Positions 2,165 to 34,054 of a DNA stretch of 64,000 nt are shown here, one piece after another. This DNA is from Polyangiaceae bacterium (GTDB lineage: Bacteria; Myxococcota_A; Polyangia; Polyangiales; Polyangiaceae): NCBI GenBank assembly GCA_025353725.1, contig JANXOF010000021.1:20945-84944 (forward strand), written 5' to 3'. The position numbers were made by a program, and so were the translations under genes. Each line of letters begins with the position of its first letter. Position 1 is the stretch's first letter. The notes below the pieces were generated by a model. The model worked only from the letters and a program-made list of their open reading frames with translations. It was not told the DNA's origin and searched no databases.

Positions 2165-4755
2165 CGCAGCAGGCCCTCGGCGTAGCGCTTCACGGCATCC
2201 CTCAAACGACTCCCGGACGATTGGCCCAAGCCTTTGATCACGCGCTTGCGAAACTCTTCCGGTCCCTTGTGCGCGTCCGCCTTCGGGATCGAAGCGTGAT
2301 CCGGTGAAAAGTTCCGGTCGGACTCTCCCTCCCCCCGCGGCGCGGCCTCGCCCTCACCGAGCGCCTCTTTCGCCGTCTCTAGTTTTTGTTGCGCCTCGCG
2401 TTGGCGCTGCAATCCCTTCTCTACATCGCCTTGTTTGAGGGCCTCCGCGGCCTCTTTCGCGGCTTGCTCAGCCGACGCAAGCGCCTCCAGCGCGGCGGCG
2501 GGCAACGCGTCTTCGTCCCGACCTTTTTTGCCAAGCTCACGCACCCGCTCCGCCAACTTGCTTTCCAGGTCGCCGTCTTCCCGAAGCGCCGCCGACGACT
2601 TGGCTGGCGACCGCTCGCGGACCTTTTCCCCCGCCGGATTCGCGTTCTTGTCGTGCTGACTTTCGGTCGCTTCGAGCGATTGTTCGACCTTTCCGACGTG
2701 GCTTGCGTGCTCCGAGGTAAGTTTGTCGAGCTCCTCCGACGCCTGGTTGAACGCCTGCTCGACCTCGCTTCCCTCGCCTTCTTCCGCATCGGGCGCGCCG
2801 CGACCTCCGCCCGATTCCCCTCCGGCATGAGAAGGGCGACCTCCGCGCGCCCCAAACGACGGATCCGGCTGACGCAAGCGCGCGGCGAGGTCTTGCGCGG
2901 CAAGTACCGCGTGCGGAAAGTCTGAAGCCGCCTGCGCGCGATCGACGCGCCGGAGATCCGTCTCGACGATTTCCCCTAGGTCACGACCGAGAGCTCCGAG
3001 TCTTTGCATGGCGCGCCCGCCGCCTGCGAGCACCCTCACGGCGGCTTGCATGCGCTCATGGCCGCCCGCGATTGACGTAGGTTTCTCGGCAAGCACGGCG
3101 GACGCAGCGAGGTCGTCGGCGACGTCCGCTAACTCTTTGGCCACGCCTCGGGTGTGCTTGACGCCCTGACCCCGGACGACGGCGTCCACCACGAGGACCA
3201 TGCGCTCGGTCGCCTTGACCACCGACGCTCTGGCTTGCGTGCTCGGCATCCGCGCTTGGGTAGCGACCGCGTCGTCCAGCTTTCGCATCCGTCCGCGAAG
3301 CCTCACGGCCAACCGACCCGGCACGCGAACGCCCGCGTACGAAGCCGAAAGCGTAGACTCAAGGAGCGTGTTTGCGTCGCGCCCGAAACGGGTTTCGCGG
3401 TCGAAAAACTCAGGTCGCTCGGCCGCTTTCGTCGGGAGACTGTGCGAAAGACGCCACGCGAGCTGGTCCACGAGCTCACCGCGGACGCCCGCGAGCGCTT
3501 CGAGCATCCGGGCCTCGGGCTCGCCGACATCCGGCGGAGCGATCGTGATCGCCGCGCTCGTGCCCCACTTGGGCCCCGTGATGGGATCGTTGTCTTTTGC
3601 CTCGACGCAAACGTCAATCGGCGCGTGACTTTTTCTTAGGAAAGGATCGTTTGCGTGAAGCATATAGCCGCCGCGATCGGCGCGCGTCTCGCCGTCGAGG
3701 TGTGCGAGAACGCGGCGCTCTTCGCGGAGTCCCGCGCGCAGCACGAGGTGCACTTCGCGCAGCCCATGGTCGTCGGTCGCCTCGTAGCGGAGCGGAATGT
3801 CCGCGGCGCTTTCGCGGTCCGCCAACGCCACTTGCGACGGGGCGCCCTCTAGCTTCACTTCGGGCGCGCGATCCGCGACCGATTCGATGGGCGTATCCTG
3901 CGCCTCGGGGATCACGACGTCAGTAAAGCGCGCGATCACGCGAACCGTCACGCTCCCCGCCAGGGGCCACCGCGCGACGACTTGACCAGTGCCATCCTCG
4001 ACAAACGGAACTTCACTCACGCCGTCCGTGAGAAGCAGCCGCCGCCCCGCGTGCACGGGAACGCCGCGCACGGTGAGAAGCGTGCCCCGAGGCAGCGACG
4101 CCTCTTCGTAAGCCAGAACGCGCCGCTCCTCCTGGTGGAGATACTCAGGCGGACGTGCGCGAATTTGAGGGTCCACGAGCCAGGCCATACCGACAGGCGC
4201 GAGGCCCCTTCGCGCGAGGAGAATATCGGCGCCTTCAAAAACCGCCCAAGGATTCGCCGCGCACGCACCCATATTCGCGATACCGAGGACAAGCGAGGAA
4301 ACCCCCAAATAGAACGCTAGACTCGAAGCCCGCCGAGCCACGCCGTCGCGCGGGAGTGCGTTGAGTGTACGCGTGACGTGCAGATCCGCGAGGGTCGCCG
4401 AAGCGCCGTGCGTCCCGCCCGAGCGGAGGAGCGAGAGCGCGCGAATGGCGCGATCCGCTCGTTCACGGTCGACGCGCCCAACGATGCGCTCGAGGATGCG
4501 CGCGGAGTCACGGAACGCCCGAGCCTCGAGCGCACGGTAAGTCACGACCGCGACGAGCATACTCAAAAGGACGACCACCGCACCGGCACGCGCGGGCGTC
4601 GTGCCCATCCGCGCGAGGAACATCGCGGCGGTCACCACGAGACACCCTGCAGCGACGGTCGTTCGTCGCCGTGGGGCACGCAAGGCGGCAACCCATGCGT
4701 CGCGGAGCGTGCGCAACGACTCCGGCAGAGGCTCGGGCAACGGCGGGGGCGTCAT
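2161..4755 (-). CDS. DUF4175-like membrane-anchored coiled-coil protein
   Basis: N-terminal TM helices, beta-rich middle with ATDDHGLREV and EAKDNDPITGP motifs, Q/E/G-rich coiled-coil tail ending RDAVKRYAEGLL, as in DUF4175-type proteins. Confidence 0.6.
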   Translation of the reverse strand: MTPPPLPEPLPESLRTLRDAWVAALRAPRRRTTVAAGCLVVTAAMFLARMGTTPARAGAVVVLLSMLVAVVTYRALEARAFRDSARILERIVGRVDRERADRAIRALSLLRSGGTHGASATLADLHVTRTLNALPRDGVARRASSLAFYLGVSSLVLGIANMGACAANPWAVFEGADILLARRGLAPVGMAWLVDPQIRARPPEYLHQEERRVLAYEEASLPRGTLLTVRGVPVHAGRRLLLTDGVSEVPFVEDGTGQVVARWPLAGSVTVRVIARFTDVVIPEAQDTPIESVADRAPEVKLEGAPSQVALADRESAADIPLRYEATDDHGLREVHLVLRAGLREERRVLAHLDGETRADRGGYMLHANDPFLRKSHAPIDVCVEAKDNDPITGPKWGTSAAITIAPPDVGEPEARMLEALAGVRGELVDQLAWRLSHSLPTKAAERPEFFDRETRFGRDANTLLESTLSASYAGVRVPGRLAVRLRGRMRKLDDAVATQARMPSTQARASVVKATERMVLVVDAVVRGQGVKHTRGVAKELADVADDLAASAVLAEKPTSIAGGHERMQAAVRVLAGGGRAMQRLGALGRDLGEIVETDLRRVDRAQAASDFPHAVLAAQDLAARLRQPDPSFGARGGRPSHAGGESGGGRGAPDAEEGEGSEVEQAFNQASEELDKLTSEHASHVGKVEQSLEATESQHDKNANPAGEKVRERSPAKSSAALREDGDLESKLAERVRELGKKGRDEDALPAAALEALASAEQAAKEAAEALKQGDVEKGLQRQREAQQKLETAKEALGEGEAAPRGEGESDRNFSPDHASIPKADAHKGPEEFRKRVIKGLGQSSGSRLRDAVKRYAEGLLR

Positions 4756-7813: not shown

Positions 7814-8311
7814 CTACCGCGTCGCGCATGCCTTCGGTGAAGTGCAGTAGTCGTGAAGGCTGTTGCAGGTCGTTTCAGGAACGGGAATCCCCACGTCAAC
7901 CAAGCTCAAGTCAATCGGGGTGAGCGCATCACCATCACCGAGCGTCTGGAGGCTGCAGCCGATCATAAAATCGACTCCGCCTCTCTGAGCGAGCGCGAGG
8001 ATGGCTGTATTGCCGTACGTGACGTTCAGCACCGGCTCCTCAAAGAGGAGTGCACACGTGGAAACCGGTTGATTTTCGCTCCGCGGCGTGAGCGGCTCTT
8101 TGCGCTTCCGCGCTTGAATGAGGTTCTGGCAAAAACCGATACTGTCGAGCGGAACATCGAACGCGAAGAGCTGCACGGTGTCTGCACCGACAGCCGCGGC
8201 CGTCGAAGGAAATTTTAGCGTATATGTCCCCTTCGACGGCCCCCGAGGCGCGGCGCAGCATGCGAGCGTGAAAGGAGCGAGCATGGCCCAGACGCATCGT
8301 GGTCGAGTCAC
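7814..8311 (-). CDS. Small Cys-rich putative lipoprotein
   Basis: GTG start overlaps upstream TGA (GTGA); lipobox-like TLAC; paired Cys incl. C-terminal TTCNSLHDYCTSPKAC. Confidence 0.6.
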   Translation of the reverse strand: MTRPRCVWAMLAPFTLACCAAPRGPSKGTYTLKFPSTAAAVGADTVQLFAFDVPLDSIGFCQNLIQARKRKEPLTPRSENQPVSTCALLFEEPVLNVTYGNTAILALAQRGGVDFMIGCSLQTLGDGDALTPIDLSLVDVGIPVPETTCNSLHDYCTSPKACATR

Positions 8312-28734: not shown

Positions 28735-30252
28735 ATGAAGACTCGTTGTTTCCTGGCCGTGGTCGCGGCTTTATCGGTTGGCTCTTCGTTCATCGCGGCC
28801 TGCGACTGCGGCAGTACGTCGGACAGCAAGGCGAATGGCGGCTCCCCCGACGCCGCCGCTAACCCGAACGTGCCCGTCACGCCAGGGGCGGATGCATCGG
28901 ACGGCTCCGTCGTGTGCGACAAGCACCTCCTCGCCGGCTTCTCGCAGGCACTTACGTCCTCGGTTGACCCGCTCTTCGGTCAGTACGCGACGATGGTTCT
29001 CGACGAGAACGACGACCCGCTCGTTGCCTACGCCGCGGTGAAGGCGAGCGTCGACGGCAATGTTGCGCCCGGCACTTGTTCGCCGCAGGGCGGAAACGTA
29101 ACCGGCTGCCAGGGCGTGTACTTCACTCGGTGGGACCCCTGCGTAGGGGCGTTCACCCCTCCGGTGGTCATCGAGTCGAACTTGAACACGTACAACGCCA
29201 CCGGCGTCCCACAGGTCGCGCTCGCGTACGATCCGACAACCAAGGAGATCGGCGTCGGCTACCAAAAGACTTTGCCTACAGACCCAAACTGGTCCGACGC
29301 GTTCCAAGCGATTTATTTGGGTACCCGCAAGGCGGGACAGACCGCGTTCACTGTGCAACAGGTGAGCGACAACGTTCGCAGCGGTCCGACGGACGTTTCG
29401 ACCGCCACCGTCCCCGCGCTCGCGATGGGCAACGGCAAAATCTACATGGCGTTTACGACCGGTACCGGCGCGCCCTCGCCGTGCCCGGCGAATCACATGT
29501 GTCTTCGGTTCCTGTCCAGCACGAGCGCCTCCAACCCTGACGCCGGCAATCCGGACGGTGGAGCGGTGCCGCACTCGTTTTCTTACGCGTTGGTGCCGAA
29601 CTCGGCGGGCTTCGGCGGGTTCGCAATTCCTCGCGAGCTCTCGATAGCAGTCGCCATCGACGGCATGGGCAGGCCCGCGGTGGCGTACCTTGAGGCACCT
29701 GAGCTCGGCTACAACACGGTGCTGAACTACTGGCGCTCCGATATGACGGACTCCGTAAAGGTGACCGACACGAACAACGTCCAAAACGACGATGTCACCG
29801 TGAATTTGGCATTCGTCGGCACGAAGCCGCGCGTCGCAGGCCTCCTCACCAACGATGGGGCGACCCACGGGATTACCTACGCGAGCTCACCCAACGAGGG
29901 CACCACCTGGAACGCAGCCGTTCCGATACTCACAAGCGGTGGAGCCGGGTTCTACACGAGTCTGGCTGCATCCAGCACGGCCGAAGCGATTACATCGCAC
30001 CATAACAACTCGCCCTCGGCCGACTCGGTCGCCGCGGGCTGCACCACCAATCCGATCGTCGCGCGCTCGACGAACGGCGGCACATCCTTCAGCGGCTGCT
30101 CGCTTCCCCGGGATGTAGATATGAATGGCACGCTCTCGAGCGCCTACGGAACAAGTCGCCTCGCGGGCAAGCTCGTCGTCGTGGGCAACGCCAAGGACAC
30201 CGTCGCCGACGGCGGCCCAGGCCACGGCATCGTCTATTTCCAGGACCCTTAA
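28735..30252 (+). CDS. Lipoprotein with BNR/Asp-box beta-propeller-like domain
   Basis: Start reassigned to ATG 28735; lipobox IAAC; Asp-box-like SSPNEGTTW and RSTNGGTSF; PDAG/DGG linkers. Confidence 0.65.
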   Translation: MKTRCFLAVVAALSVGSSFIAACDCGSTSDSKANGGSPDAAANPNVPVTPGADASDGSVVCDKHLLAGFSQALTSSVDPLFGQYATMVLDENDDPLVAYAAVKASVDGNVAPGTCSPQGGNVTGCQGVYFTRWDPCVGAFTPPVVIESNLNTYNATGVPQVALAYDPTTKEIGVGYQKTLPTDPNWSDAFQAIYLGTRKAGQTAFTVQQVSDNVRSGPTDVSTATVPALAMGNGKIYMAFTTGTGAPSPCPANHMCLRFLSSTSASNPDAGNPDGGAVPHSFSYALVPNSAGFGGFAIPRELSIAVAIDGMGRPAVAYLEAPELGYNTVLNYWRSDMTDSVKVTDTNNVQNDDVTVNLAFVGTKPRVAGLLTNDGATHGITYASSPNEGTTWNAAVPILTSGGAGFYTSLAASSTAEAITSHHNNSPSADSVAAGCTTNPIVARSTNGGTSFSGCSLPRDVDMNGTLSSAYGTSRLAGKLVVVGNAKDTVADGGPGHGIVYFQDP

Positions 30253-30370
30253 GTCCCCGAACCACGAAGGTTCTCGATACGCCTTTCCCCGCGGGCTCGT
30301 TTGAGCACGCGGGGATTCGTTTACGTCGACTTCGACGAAGGCGGTGCGGGCCGTCTCGCGCCGAGAGTGG

Positions 30371-30512
30371 CGACGGACATCGAGGTGCGAATCCGGCAAC
30401 ACGCGTGGGCCGCGCTCTCGGGTAGGGTCCTCGCTTCGGCGGTCGATCGCGTCGACGAGTTCGCGCGCTGGGACGTGCGACCCGTGTCGGCGCGTTATGT
30501 CGTCGGCAACGG
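30371..30512 (+). repeat. 142-bp diverged direct copy of an internal piece of the gene at 38061-39200 (matches 38323-38464)
   Basis: Manual alignment at constant offset 7952 with 10 mismatches in 142 nt and no gaps; encodes TDIEVRIRQHAWAALSGRVLASAVDRVDEFARWDVRPVSARYVV. Confidence 0.9.
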
Positions 30513-30535
30513 GGGGGCCTACGCGTGGAGCGGTC

Positions 30536-30973
30536 TCACTTGAGCGCAGGCGCGGGTGGCGGCGAAGGCACGTTGCCCGGGTTGGGGTCTCGCTTGCCGT
30601 TCTTTGCCTCCCAGGCAGCGCCCTTTTCGGCGCACGCCGCGAGCTGTCGCCTGAATTCGGCAGGGTCTCGGGCCTCGAGACTCGCGTCGACGGCGCAAGC
30701 CGCGCCTTCATCGCTTCGCGGGCAGGTTCGCTTTGCCGCGCCCGTGCCAGACGCTGTGGCCGCCGTCAAGACACGGACGCTATCGCTCTCTGCAGCTCCC
30801 GAATTCGGACCGCGGGTGTCGGCCTCGCTCGAGCCCGTTTCGGCCTCGCAACCCTCGTCAGTTCCATCGACGAGCGCGCTTTCCTTGCGACTGGCGCCTT
30901 CTTGATCGGGAGCGGCGCAACCGAAAGCGGAGAGTGCACCCGCGACGATAAGCGTAACCACAAGCTTGTTCAT
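30536..30973 (-). CDS. Small lipoprotein, hypothetical
   Basis: GGAGG SD before ATG 30973; lipobox AFGC; paired Cys. Confidence 0.65.
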   Translation of the reverse strand: MNKLVVTLIVAGALSAFGCAAPDQEGASRKESALVDGTDEGCEAETGSSEADTRGPNSGAAESDSVRVLTAATASGTGAAKRTCPRSDEGAACAVDASLEARDPAEFRRQLAACAEKGAAWEAKNGKRDPNPGNVPSPPPAPALK

Positions 30974-31139
30974 GACTAACCTCCAGGGAAGTGCACCGTT
31001 CCGTGCGTGCACACCCGGTCTGAAGCAGAGGTCATGCCACTGCGGCACGAACGCGAAGCCTCGAGGAATAACGCGCTGCGGAGGATGTGCAAGCTGCGCG
31101 ATCGCTGTTTAGAAACCACACCTTGTAGGGTGCAAACAC

Positions 31140-31369
31140 GATGCCTCTTCGAATGGCGCCGGCCTCGCCGGGGCGTGGTCGCCTTGAGCTTAGAAGCCGC
31201 CCGATACGCCTGCCGCAGTGCCACCGAAGTACGGAGAGACGGTGATGCCTCGCGAATGCGAAGCATCCACTCCACGCGATCGATCTCTCGTTGGCTCATG
31301 GTGATTAGGTCCGCCCAGGTCATGGCGAACCCGATAGGCCGGACCCGACATTTTCATCTGGGGCCTACA
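31140..31369 (-). mobile_element. IS1202/IS481-like (ISNCY) left-end remnant
   Basis: Minus strand begins TGTAGGCCCCAGATGAAAATGTC (TGT-type terminus); ORF from 31323 reads MTWADLITMSQREIDRVEWMLRIRE...RQAYRAA...RRGRRHS, resembling the ITMSxRELDR...RGRPS N-terminus of these transposases but internally deleted. Confidence 0.55.
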
Positions 31370-31374
31370 GGGCG

Positions 31375-31403
31375 GGATCGCATAATCCAGGATTATGTCG
31401 CCT
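31375..31403. other. dif/xrs-like tyrosine-recombinase site with a 7-bp central region
   Basis: GGATCGCATAA-TCCAGGA-TTATGTCGCCT. Left arm is 9/11 identical to the E. coli XerC arm GGTGCGCATAA, right arm 7/11 to the XerD arm TTATGTTAAAT; inner CATAATCC-A-GGATTATG is a perfect palindrome. Confidence 0.5.
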
Positions 31404-31494
31404 TCCTCCTCGGAGCGACCCCGCTTGCACGGCCTATCCACTTAACATCGCCGACCGCGCGCGCCTGCTCAACGGGAATGCCCGAAGGTGCGGT

Positions 31495-31675
31495 GAACGG
31501 CGGGCGCCGTCCTGATGTGCAGCTTCACCACTGTGATGGGCTACGGATCGCTGGTCTTTTCGGACTTCCAGGCTCTCGAGGGCTTCGGCAAGCTCGCGGT
31601 GGTGGGCGAGGTGGGATGCGTCTTCAGCGCGGTGTTCTTGGTGCCGGCGCTCTCCGCCGCGCTGGGGTCGGTCTC
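31495..31675 (+). pseudogene. C-terminal fragment of an MMPL/RND-family transporter
   Basis: TAGAVLMCSFTTVMGYGSLVFSDFQALEGFGKLAVVGEVGCVFSAVFLVPAL matches the last TM helices of MMPL/SSD-like proteins; the rest of the gene is absent. Confidence 0.7.
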
Positions 31676-31774
31676 GCGAATCCGCGTCTTCGGGGGTGGC
31701 GGTACGGAGGAAAAAATAGCCGCCACGTCAGCAGCAGACCAGAGGTCGCCCACGCTTCAAGAAGTTGGGAACGG

Positions 31775-32758
31775 TCATGGCAGGAGCCACTCGATCGGTT
31801 GCGCGGGGTCGGCCCTGAACGCGAGCACGGTTTCCGCGATGAGGTCCATGCCGAGCATCCCGCGTGGCTCGGGCATCTCGGGACGAACTAGCAGTCTGGG
31901 CACGGCCAACACCGCCGCTGTCCCGACCCGCAAGTGCTGCCCGAGCACGTCTTCGCCATGTATCGACCCACCGCTCGCACCGCGCCCAACCCGCGTGGAG
32001 GCCGACCCTCGCAGCCCCGGAACGATCGACGCCGCTACCTCAGTTTGGGGACCTCCTGTGTTGAACATCATTGGGACCGCTGCAAAGGGGTCAATCGCAG
32101 CCCGCGTCATCACGAGCTGACCCGACTCACGTTGGAGCGACACAAGCCGAAGTCGCGGGTGCCGTGCCCGGAGGCAGGCGGCCGTGTACATGGCATCGAC
32201 CTCGACGACCGATAGACGATGGTCGACGAAATCAAGGAGGACCAGAGCTGATGCGTGCAAGTGCTGTGGGCTCACAATGCCTCCAATGCCACTTGCATCG
32301 AAGTAAGCGGGCCCACGGATGGCAACTGCGCCATGCAGCGCGACGTCGCTTCCGCCAATCTGAGCCGCTACCTTGCCGACCTCCCAACTCTCCACCGGCT
32401 GGCCAGCGTGGTCAGTGCCCGGCTCGGAGGGCGCGAGCGTCAAACCCGCACGCAAGGCCAGGTCGCGGGTAAGCACGTGAGTGGTGGCGCCCGTATCCAC
32501 GATGAGCTTCGTATCGACGCCCCGGATCCGCGCGCGCACCATTGGAGCGGGCCACGCACCTCGGGCGTCGTCGAACGACAGCGGTGTCTCAACCAGGATC
32601 CGCGCAGGACAGTTCGCCGAGGATTCTGTTGTAGCTCCGTGCGACGCACCCTGCACGGCGAGCGACGAAGCGGGGGGAGTGGCGCAGCCAGCGATGAGAA
32701 TCGCCACGACCGAGCCACCGTGGGGCGATCGTGAGCCGGAAACGCGCAGCTGCCTCAT
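31775..32758 (-). CDS. Lipoprotein with tandem retropepsin-like aspartic protease domains
   Basis: Lipobox IAGC; first domain LIVDTGAT; second domain MFNTGG; GIGGIVS / GMLGMDL flap-region motifs. Confidence 0.75.
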   Translation of the reverse strand: MRQLRVSGSRSPHGGSVVAILIAGCATPPASSLAVQGASHGATTESSANCPARILVETPLSFDDARGAWPAPMVRARIRGVDTKLIVDTGATTHVLTRDLALRAGLTLAPSEPGTDHAGQPVESWEVGKVAAQIGGSDVALHGAVAIRGPAYFDASGIGGIVSPQHLHASALVLLDFVDHRLSVVEVDAMYTAACLRARHPRLRLVSLQRESGQLVMTRAAIDPFAAVPMMFNTGGPQTEVAASIVPGLRGSASTRVGRGASGGSIHGEDVLGQHLRVGTAAVLAVPRLLVRPEMPEPRGMLGMDLIAETVLAFRADPAQPIEWLLP

Positions 32759-32869
32759 GGTGGGTACGTTTTTATCAAAGCAAACGACTCGGCGTCGAGC
32801 GCACCGCGACGGTCATCGGCATGGGCAGCCACGCGCCGATCGGCCAGCCGATCTTGCGGGCCGAGGACG

Positions 32870-33110
32870 TGACGATATGCACGCCGGCGTGCAGGTTGAA
32901 GCCTTCGTACTCGGCGGTAAAACGCCGCTTGCTAGATGCGCCATCGCCGGAACCGCCGTCGTTGTCGTCGTCGGGAAGCTTCGCGAAGGCCCCGCGCTGC
33001 ATCGCGATCGTGGCGCACGCGCCGATCGCGTCCGACTCCGCGCTGTCGTTCGAGCGCTCTTCGAGCGGGCGCGCGTCGAAGTGGCCGGCACGTCCCGTTG
33101 GAGAGCACCG
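32870..33110 (-). mobile_element. IS91-family (Y2) transposase remnant
   Basis: DAIGACATIAMQRGAFAKL...RRFTAEYEGFNLHAGVHI matches the GFxLHAGV segment of deltaproteobacterial IS91-like transposases; both flanks are lost. Confidence 0.55.
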
Positions 33111-33361
33111 CGTGTTGCCTAGGGCGCGCATGCAAGTCTCCTCAACAGAGCGACGATTCCCCGCGAGGGTTGCGGCGTTCGGCTTGGCAGAACGGCGATT
33201 ACGCGTTGGGGAAAGGGAGTTCCGCGGAACAGAATGACCTTTTCGCGCCGGGGAAGTCTCGCGCGGCGCGCGGGATCGCGAGATGCTTGTCGGAGCGCTG
33301 CAATCCCGTATGCTCGCGCTCAGGGGCAGACGTGTAATGAGGAAGCCCCCAAGGAGGCCTT

Positions 33362-34054
33362 GTGGCTCGTCAAACGAATCCCCATCAGCGTGCGTACGGG
33401 CAAGCCGTCATTAATCGCCTTGCCGCGGAGACGGTGCCCGCAGGGCTCAAAGTCCCCGTAAAAGATTTCAAGGAAGCGCAGCGCGATCTCGAGAAGGCCA
33501 CGAAGGCAACGGAGGAGTCACGCGCCGCGCGCGACGCCGCGCTCGAGGGCGTGGCGACGGCAGACGCAACACTCGACGAACTCGTCGACACGCTTGCGAA
33601 CGCGCTCGTTGGCGCCGGGCTCGGCACGCGGCGTAAACCTTTGGCGTCCTTTACGCGTCGGTCGGTGAGCGACATCGTAAGCCTCGCGTACGCCACGGAG
33701 GCCAAAGAAGTGCGGGCGATCTGCCGCGCGATTCGAAAGGCGAAGCCCGACGCAAGCGTTGCAAAAGTGATTGGGCAATGCGAAGAGCAGCTTGCGGCGG
33801 TGGACCGTGCCATCGCGGCCATCGCCAAACCGCAGGCCTCTTACGCCAAGGCGCTTGCGAAGCGTGACGCTCTTTTCCCGGAGTGGACGCGCCGCCTAAC
33901 CCGCCTCAAACGCCACGCCGCCGTCGCCTGGGAAAACGAGCCCGCCCTCGTGAAGAGCACCTTTGCGCCTCCCGATGCACTCGCGGCCCCCAAAGCGAAG
34001 CGACGGAAGGTCACCGGGACGCCAGAACCGGTGACGCCAGCGGCCACAGAGTGA
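33362..34054 (+). CDS. All-helical hypothetical protein
   Basis: Strong AAGGAGG SD before GTG; Ala/Lys/Arg-rich amphipathic helices; GC3-biased codons. Confidence 0.7.
   Translation: MARQTNPHQRAYGQAVINRLAAETVPAGLKVPVKDFKEAQRDLEKATKATEESRAARDAALEGVATADATLDELVDTLANALVGAGLGTRRKPLASFTRRSVSDIVSLAYATEAKEVRAICRAIRKAKPDASVAKVIGQCEEQLAAVDRAIAAIAKPQASYAKALAKRDALFPEWTRRLTRLKRHAAVAWENEPALVKSTFAPPDALAAPKAKRRKVTGTPEPVTPAATE

Follow-up and report, generated by a model that had tools for sequence, protein, structure and literature searches.

Does an insertion sequence (IS) end lying five bases from a dif-like palindrome record a transposition event aimed at a Xer recombination site, and did that site go on to seed an accessory island or to serve in a system of exchangeable gene modules? 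This question is raised by a locus in a stretch of 64,000 nucleotides from a Polyangiaceae bacterium, referred to here as the window. The window corresponds to C74:20945-84944 of the genome under study (G000), C numbers denoting the contigs of that genome.

Layout of the junction

A previous reading of the window, made without database searches (the sequence-only reading), had described a TGT-type IS terminus ending at 31369, the five bases GGGCG, and then a dif-like repeat with a 7-bp centre, and we found the sequence to be exactly so (Table 1). The terminus reads ...GGGGCCTACA (...ggggcctaca) with its last base at 31369, and GGGCG occupies positions 31370-31374, between the IS tip and the dif-like repeat. 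The core of the repeat is a perfect 8-1-8 palindrome, CATAATCC-A-GGATTATG (31381-31397). Of the span 31140-31403 given in that reading, only 31249-31369 is IS-derived.

The centre of the repeat, in the 6-8 bp class, separates arms of 11 bp each, which have ATAA and TTATG on their inner sides. Centres of Xer sites are quoted as 6-8 bp (Siguier et al., bioRxiv 10.1101/2022.12.17.520857), a range that includes the 7 bp observed here, and each of the 25 targets that Table 8 of PMC10132070 lists has a 6-bp centre. By shuffling, the pattern CATAA-N7-TTATG was expected 0.01 times per window. The genome-wide search for CATAA-N6/7-TTATG that had been proposed did return matches, with two of the N7 form and four of the N6 form in the whole 6.6-Mb assembly.

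Table 1. Features at the locus and transposase fragments located upstream of related ends on other contigs.
Feature	Position	Strand	Evidence or remark
Templated patch, 77 bp	31180..31256	-	96% identity to gene 3' end, C74:123637-123713
Predicted left-end stub of an IS1202-family (ISAba32/ISAjo2-type) IS	31249..31369	-	IRL tip and N-terminal peptide matches
Solo right-end (oriIS-type) module, family A, 72 bp	31370..31441	+	nhmmer, BLAST; ends ...GGCCTATCCAC
dif-like inverted repeat	31375..31403	+	GGATCGCATAA + 7-bp centre + TTATGTCGCCT
XerC-type arm GGATCGCATAA	31375-31385		
Repeat centre TCCAGGA, 7 bp	31386-31392		
XerD-type arm TTATGTCGCCT	31393-31403		
Orphan MMPL-family C-terminal fragment, ~60 aa	31497..31682	+	right of oriIS module
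Transposase C-terminus, C35	3031-3255		family A at 3334, same orientation
Transposase C-terminus, C87	1043-1267		family A at 1346, same orientation
Transposase C-terminus, C67	143-334		family B at 422, same orientation

The IS1202-family stub, its scar and its insertion geometry

The stub is 121 bp long and consists of the IRL and 25 codons. The IRL tip, TGTAGGCCCCAGATGAAAATGTCGGG, begins at 31369, and an ATG at 31323 is followed by the 25 codons (MTWADLITMSQREIDRVEWMLRIRE). A second copy of the stub end was observed by BLAST at C13:494275, the sole other one in the genome. Homology between the window and C13 copies ends at the same base, beside the TGT/TGC tip and within 1 bp, and 31369/31370 is therefore taken as a true element boundary. 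The IRL starts with TGTAGG in the window and with TGCAGG in the C13 copy, and the IRR is deleted. Eleven of the first 12 bases of the window IRL (TGTAGGCCCCAGATG...) were identical to those of an IS in the relative G030 (TGCAGGCCCCAGTTAG..., tip TGCAGGCCCCAG), and the stub tip also matched an IS in the relative G026 (TGTAGGACC...GAAATGTCCGG). The inner IR motif occurs twice in the C13 copy, first as GAAAATGTCGGG and then as GAAATGTCGGG, giving an internal repeat GAAA(A)TGTCGGG; GAAATGTCCGG likewise occurs twice in the G026 element, and one inner repeat is left in the window copy. An internal repeat of the inner IR has been described for the IS1202 family (Harmer et al., PMC10132070).

The 25-residue peptide aligned N-terminus to N-terminus with residues 4-22 of an ISNCY_2 transposase from S. 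fredii, with 63% identity (pairwise E=5e-6), and that transposase scored 496 bits to NF033594 (ISNCY_2). A tblastn search of the 25 residues against plasmids gave a best E of only 4, and six of the eight matches were the N-terminus of Sinorhizobium 'ISNCY family' transposases; no match to the peptide was found in the Pfam or NCBIfam HMM libraries. The transposase expected for the family has ~440-480 aa (HTH-HTH-DDE; NCBIfam ISNCY_2), of which the window keeps 25 codons only. The IS1202-like end of the sequence-only reading was thus borne out, the IRL tip and the peptide both matching IS1202-family (ISNCY_2) elements, and the segment 31249-31369 is, judged from these matches, the IRL stub of such an IS. 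An intact copy of the element was absent from this genome and from 40 relatives at both the DNA and the protein level, and neither a second GGGCG nor an IRR was found in these same genomes. We considered a TGTAGG at 31124 as the IRR and rejected it, as it is unlike the IRL and has no adjacent GGGCG. Additional stub matches at C83:10284 and C76:7404 were dismissed as chance occurrences within coding sequence.

Stub and patch are joined via an 8-bp microhomology, TTCGCGAG, at 31249-31256. The homology of the patch stops at both of its ends, and the donor is an unrelated gene located 71 kb away on the same contig. The patch apparently marks the deletion by which the remainder of the IS was lost. 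In its form, a 77-bp patch of this kind resembles a microhomology-mediated repair scar. A minus-strand open reading frame, 31323..30976, was considered as a long transposase remnant and discarded, the residues after the first 25 coming from the templated patch; the frame is a chimera because the IS stub is joined to the patch.

The orphan MMPL fragment shared 50-60% identity with the C-terminal ~52 aa of its full-length paralogs on C64 (17247-20168), C36 and C90, and the C64 paralog, 973 aa between stops, has a Pfam MMPL match. The remaining neighbours of the locus encode a Na+/H+ exchanger, a TetR regulator, an aspartyl protease and SNF2/SWIM proteins, and GC content was flat around the locus. 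The site had been suggested to have nucleated an accessory island. We saw no sign of this, since the site is flanked by the scar of a deletion, a truncated MMPL gene and otherwise ordinary genes of the chromosome, and GC content does not shift.

The assignment was independently supported by an HMM search of the 40 relatives with NF033594, which found IS1202-family elements in G030 and G026, both of them other myxobacteria of the same order. In G030 (C117, ~7890-7930) the 5 bp GGCAG separate the tip of a decayed IS from the XerC arm of ACTTCGCAGAA-GATAGA-TTATGTAAACT, the single canonical dif of that genome. G026 (C313) carries a full element with IRL TGTAGGACCAAAGTAGAAATGTCCGG... as two tandem copies with the 5-bp GTTAT between them. 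These observations place dif-hunting IS1202-type elements in the Myxococcota, at dif in G030 and in tandem in G026. The IS on the S. fredii plasmid has its tip 5 bp (TGATA) from AGATCGCATAA-TCTATC-TTATGGAACAG, an ISRel26-type target of the kind listed in Table 8 of PMC10132070.

A distance rule of 5-6 bp has been published for the IRL (PMC10132070; bioRxiv 2022.12.17.520857), with the IRL always on the XerC side at 5-6 bp and with partial copies retaining the IRL (Siguier et al., bioRxiv 10.1101/2022.12.17.520857). The window displays this fixed geometry, its IRL being directed toward the XerC-type arm and 5 bp off, as in G030 and S. fredii. The proposed fossil of Xer-site-targeted transposition is therefore supported, the same 5-bp spacing from a XerC arm recurring in the G030 and S. 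fredii elements. GGGCG presumably represents one copy of the 5-bp target duplication, and the IRL-side copy alone is present; the IRR-side repeat is gone because the deletion removed that side. The stub probably reached the palindrome by a targeted IS1202-type insertion, to judge from its exact IRL tip, from the way it is oriented and from the 5-bp rule. Just one such junction of IS and palindrome was observed, and the C13 stub lies beside no dif-like sequence.

The palindrome within an IS91/ISCR-type right end

The first 50 bp from 31370 matched several other places in the genome by BLAST. Extension of these matches with nhmmer and BLAST defined a family of repeats, family A, of ~115 bp and 12 copies with a sharp common right edge, ...CCTATCC(G/A)C; the left ~45 bp are missing from the window copy and from the copy on C98. 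A second family, family B, is 111 bp long and collinearly homologous to family A, with 68 BLAST matches at 85-100% identity, 62 of them full-length and five 5'-truncated with the 3' end kept. Family B was observed on ~20 small contigs and at the termini of large contigs; its copies are spaced by a median of 3.3 kb, and in 40 of 48 cases neighbours share one orientation, forming direct repeats. The arrays were located on C11, C16, C17, C21, C38, C44, C45, C50 (1-31.5 kb), C53 and C58, and also on C67, C71, C77, C80, C82, C84, C89, C95 and the ends of C15 and C87. The DNA that flanks copies of the two families, including the segments within the family-B arrays, is unrelated from place to place and often consists of truncated genes, such as a zinc-dehydrogenase without its N-terminal domain, an IS3-type transposase cut inside its rve domain and the MMPL tail in the window.

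Ends of families A and B lie 65-190 bp downstream of the C-termini of ISCR-like transposases on C35, C87 and C67 (Table 1), and the mutual homology of C35 and C87 stops at the family-A right boundary. Of the 509 positions of NCBIfam NF052416 (ISCR clade Ia), the transposase fragments match the corresponding N- and C-terminal ones, 16-81 and 444-487. With this position downstream of transposase C-termini that match NF052416, we therefore regard both families as right (oriIS-type) ends. Fragments with Y2_Tnp and Zn_Tnp_IS91 matches were concentrated on the array contigs, none of the A or B ends in the assembly was found with an intact IS91/ISCR-type transposase, and the window copy is a solo end with no transposase. 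For IS91, the final ~82 bp with subterminal palindromes suffices for function (PMC13181058; PMC13393415). The dif-like repeat in the window is, by its alignment, the subterminal palindrome of a family-A right end of the IS91/ISCR type. The free-standing, ectopic xrs of the sequence-only reading had to be abandoned, because the site is not autonomous and belongs to a right end with ~80 copies in the genome.

The bases after ...CCTAT(C/T)CGC were variable, mostly with C or T first, and the target could be the final four bases of the end itself, CCGC/TCGC. A strict A/B pattern was found in this genome and in one same-genus MAG (JAYTBL01) only, among 185,579 species representatives, and family A was confined to this genome in a comparison with the 40 relatives.

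Several other identities were considered for the two families. In 60 aligned copies we observed neither terminal inverted repeats nor target duplications, which excluded a MITE, and the folding of A and B sequences was not better than that of shuffled sequence (z = -0.4 to +1.1). An integron attC array was rejected, with no TIGR02249 (IntI) match above the cut-off and no hairpin energy beyond shuffled sequence, as was an array-linked tyrosine recombinase, just five being present in the genome and none on the array contigs. A conserved 5' coding leader in family B was set aside since ACG stands in place of ATG in most copies and the reading frames are closed by a stop after a few codons. The paired change between the family-A (CATAA/TTATG) and family-B (CGT(G)AA/TTACG) hairpins was not counted as covariation, as it is a single event and needs a bulge. 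A search for structured RNA gave no Rfam match in 29000-34000 at E<=1.

Membership in this repeat also bears on a reading in which the palindrome has no link to mobile elements and either serves as an operator for a transcription factor or arose by chance. A perfect 8-1-8 palindrome between divergent reading frames is what an operator would look like, yet this explanation is very hard to sustain, as the palindrome aligns over 72 bp with 11 other repeat copies having variable half-sites, the extended TCC-A-GGA symmetry is found in the window copy alone, and CATAA-N7-TTATG has the low chance expectation given above.

The arrays of family B most likely derive from repeated one-ended rolling-circle capture that targeted the element's own end. 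The last ~16 nt of A and B ends were observed as tandem duplications in four places, e.g. TTGCGCTACCTATTCGC twice, and in one place a full family-B copy is directly followed by a copy starting at position 37; the coordinates of these tip duplications and re-starts are C87:1440-1475, C44:2950-2980, C82:4320-4335, C84:8849-8890 and C50:31354-31542. Such tip duplications may be a sign of re-initiation or of self-targeted insertion at the oriIS tip. As a by-product, the analysis brings to light a genome in which 68 nearly identical solo ends of ISCR-like type are arrayed with fragments of captured genes between them.

The behaviour of these ends offers a route by which stub and palindrome could have been juxtaposed without IS1202 targeting, the 72-bp module having a left boundary of its own, and an insertion, a one-ended capture or a deletion having brought it against the IS tip. 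That boundary could reflect ter-like cleavage by the rolling-circle transposase, or a break during recombination. An IS-free start within ~3 bp of this position is also seen in four other partial A/B copies (among them C98, C50:31464 and G013:C707), and the left edge of the 72-bp module may therefore be a natural IS91-type boundary; 3'-tip tandem duplications and 5' truncations in both families are, in addition, typical of sloppy rolling-circle events. The C13 stub and family A, ~810 bp apart and in the same relative orientation, could represent co-mobilised DNA. We nevertheless judge this route unlikely, as chance alone would have to bring the module edge to precisely the outermost base of the IRL, whereas an IRL in this orientation at 5 bp from an ATAA...TTATG repeat is the prediction of the IS1202 rule, which the G030 element obeys at a true dif.

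At C13:493346-494420 the stub and a full family-A end have the same relative orientation as in the window, and a low-GC glyoxalase (VOC)/PhnB-type gene lies between them. The two rare elements, stub and family A, were thus observed in association repeatedly, in the window and on C13.

Xer-site likeness and comparison with known systems

A site AATTCGTATAA-TAAGCA-TTATGTAAACT with a 6-bp centre was observed at C76:90519-90546 and is the probable chromosomal dif by its match to the genus pattern. The genus dif consensus is ATAA-GATGCA-TTATGT(C/A)AACT, with one site per genome, and the conserved ATAA-N6-TTATGT[CA]AACT occurs in this genome at C76:90526. With one mismatch allowed, ATAA-N6-TTATGTAAACT was found exactly once in 31 of the 40 relatives and twice here, and a control pattern was found zero times. 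A comparison of the locus with the replication terminus and the predicted dif had been proposed, and it succeeded in part: the real dif lies elsewhere, at the C76 site, and the GC-skew signal for a terminus on C76 was too weak to be of use. The window palindrome is a member of a 12-copy repeat and so lacks the single-copy state of a dif.

The second site of dif type in this genome, GCCTCGCATAA-CATGGG-TTATGTAAACT at C84:8608-8635 (-), is located on one of the contigs with family-B arrays; its XerD arm is that of the host without a mismatch, and a partial family-B copy is ~215 bp away. This genome was the only one of the 41 searched to have two dif-type sites.

Compared with the host and genus dif (AATTCGTATAA / TTATGTCAACT), the window arms matched at 7 of 11 positions on the XerC side and 9 of 11 on the XerD side. 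Given TTATG, four of the six remaining XerD-arm bases match by chance with p ~0.04 by our own calculation. The genome encodes a XerD with 341 bits to TIGR02225 (C76:138144-139094, on the dif contig) and a XerC-like protein with 298 bits to TIGR02224 (on C32). XerC and XerD may bind the palindrome.

A further step would be to regard the palindrome and the A and B cores as genuine XerC/XerD substrates, the ~80 copies forming a system of xrs cassettes in which Xer recombination shuffles segments. This would fit the arms described above, a 7-bp centre within 6-8 bp, the presence of both xer genes, an xrs-hunting IS at the canonical distance from the palindrome, the second canonical dif-like site on array contig C84, and the way in which family-B copies separate unrelated DNA segments, like recombination sites. 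Several observations speak against it. The conserved unit measures 72-115 bp, not 28 bp, and forms the 3' terminus of ISCR-like elements. CATCA replaces CATAA in half of the family-A copies (six), the family-B core, ATCGTCGTGAA-TTGCGCG-TTACGTCTTCT, is without the ATAA/TTATG signature and a poor Xer match, and the centre is 7 bp in every A and B copy. Neighbouring copies are direct repeats in 40 of 48 cases, whereas pdif modules have inverted sites. Xer strand exchange occurs in the centre of the site, but the partial A/B copies break ~5 bp outside the left arm. We consider a Xer cassette system of this kind improbable.

Such sites do recur, in ~80 copies, but their proposed nature as pdif-like modules is not supported, given the direct orientation of most neighbours and the poor family-B core. 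The transposase fragments, 5'-truncated copies and 3'-tip duplications instead indicate rolling-circle transposition. A mixed account, in which IS91/ISCR-type ends have evolved or captured a functional XerC/XerD site and Xer recombination would move segments of 0.3-19 kb among the ~80 copies, seems more doubtful still. If true, it would describe a hybrid rolling-circle/Xer cassette system of which the IS1202 stub is the first footprint.

The account towards which we lean, with some reserve, is that of a two-element pile-up, with an IS1202-family stub facing the palindrome of an IS91/ISCR-type end across 5 bp as a result of targeted insertion and later deletion. The IS1202-type element would have inserted since the palindrome resembles, or is bound like, a XerC/XerD site, and a later deletion, repaired with the 77-bp templated patch, would have removed the rest of the IS together with the left part of its target. 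On this account, what is left is a decayed pile-up of a stub and a right end, which neither serves as an active recombination site nor seeded an island. It is a dead relic without likely present function.

Elements of the ISAba32/ISAjo2 type may find Xer sites by reading DNA or by docking on bound XerC. The locus provides a natural target, with dif-like arms, a 7-bp centre and an unrelated transposon end. Binding of XerC and XerD to the palindrome would mean that ends of rolling-circle elements are able to recruit the machinery with which the host resolves dimers, and a lack of binding would mean that the DNA is read directly by the IS.

Among known systems, the stub is most directly compared with the ISAba32/ISAjo2 subgroup (e.g. 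ISRel26, ISBcen27, ISKpn21), with which it shares the 5'-TGT terminus, the internal repeat of the IR core, the N-terminal ITMSQxExxRxE, the retention of the IRL in decayed copies and the placement of the IRL 5 bp from a XerC-type arm. It differs in its myxobacterial (Polyangia) host and in the 121 bp that are left, and its target differs from those of the subgroup in having a 7-bp centre and in lying within the end of another transposable element, not in a dif or plasmid xrs. Plasmid Xer sites with long centres (cer-type, 8 bp) also have 11-bp arms and a centre longer than 6 bp, but accessory-sequence architecture and plasmid context set them apart from the palindrome, whose dependence on Xer is hypothetical.

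The A and B ends resemble the oriIS of IS91/ISCR elements (IS91, IS801, IS1294, ISCR1-type) in their location downstream of a HUH Y2-type transposase gene, in a terminal module of ~75-110 bp with a subterminal palindrome, in having no terminal inverted repeats or target duplication, in a fixed 3' end with variable 5' extent, and in their association with captured or truncated foreign DNA. They are unlike these elements in that no conserved flanking tetranucleotide was seen and no intact linked transposase is present in the assembly, and also in the 68 solo ends in arrays and the likeness of the family-A palindrome to the host dif. With the pdif modules or xrs cassettes of Acinetobacter plasmids they have in common dif-like sequences repeated between unrelated segments, with IS1202-type elements beside them, whereas the A and B repeats are 72-115 bp transposon ends, mostly direct, with a poor Xer consensus in family B. 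Xer-site targeting itself is a known behaviour, and the locus is an unusual variant of it and not a new gene-module system.
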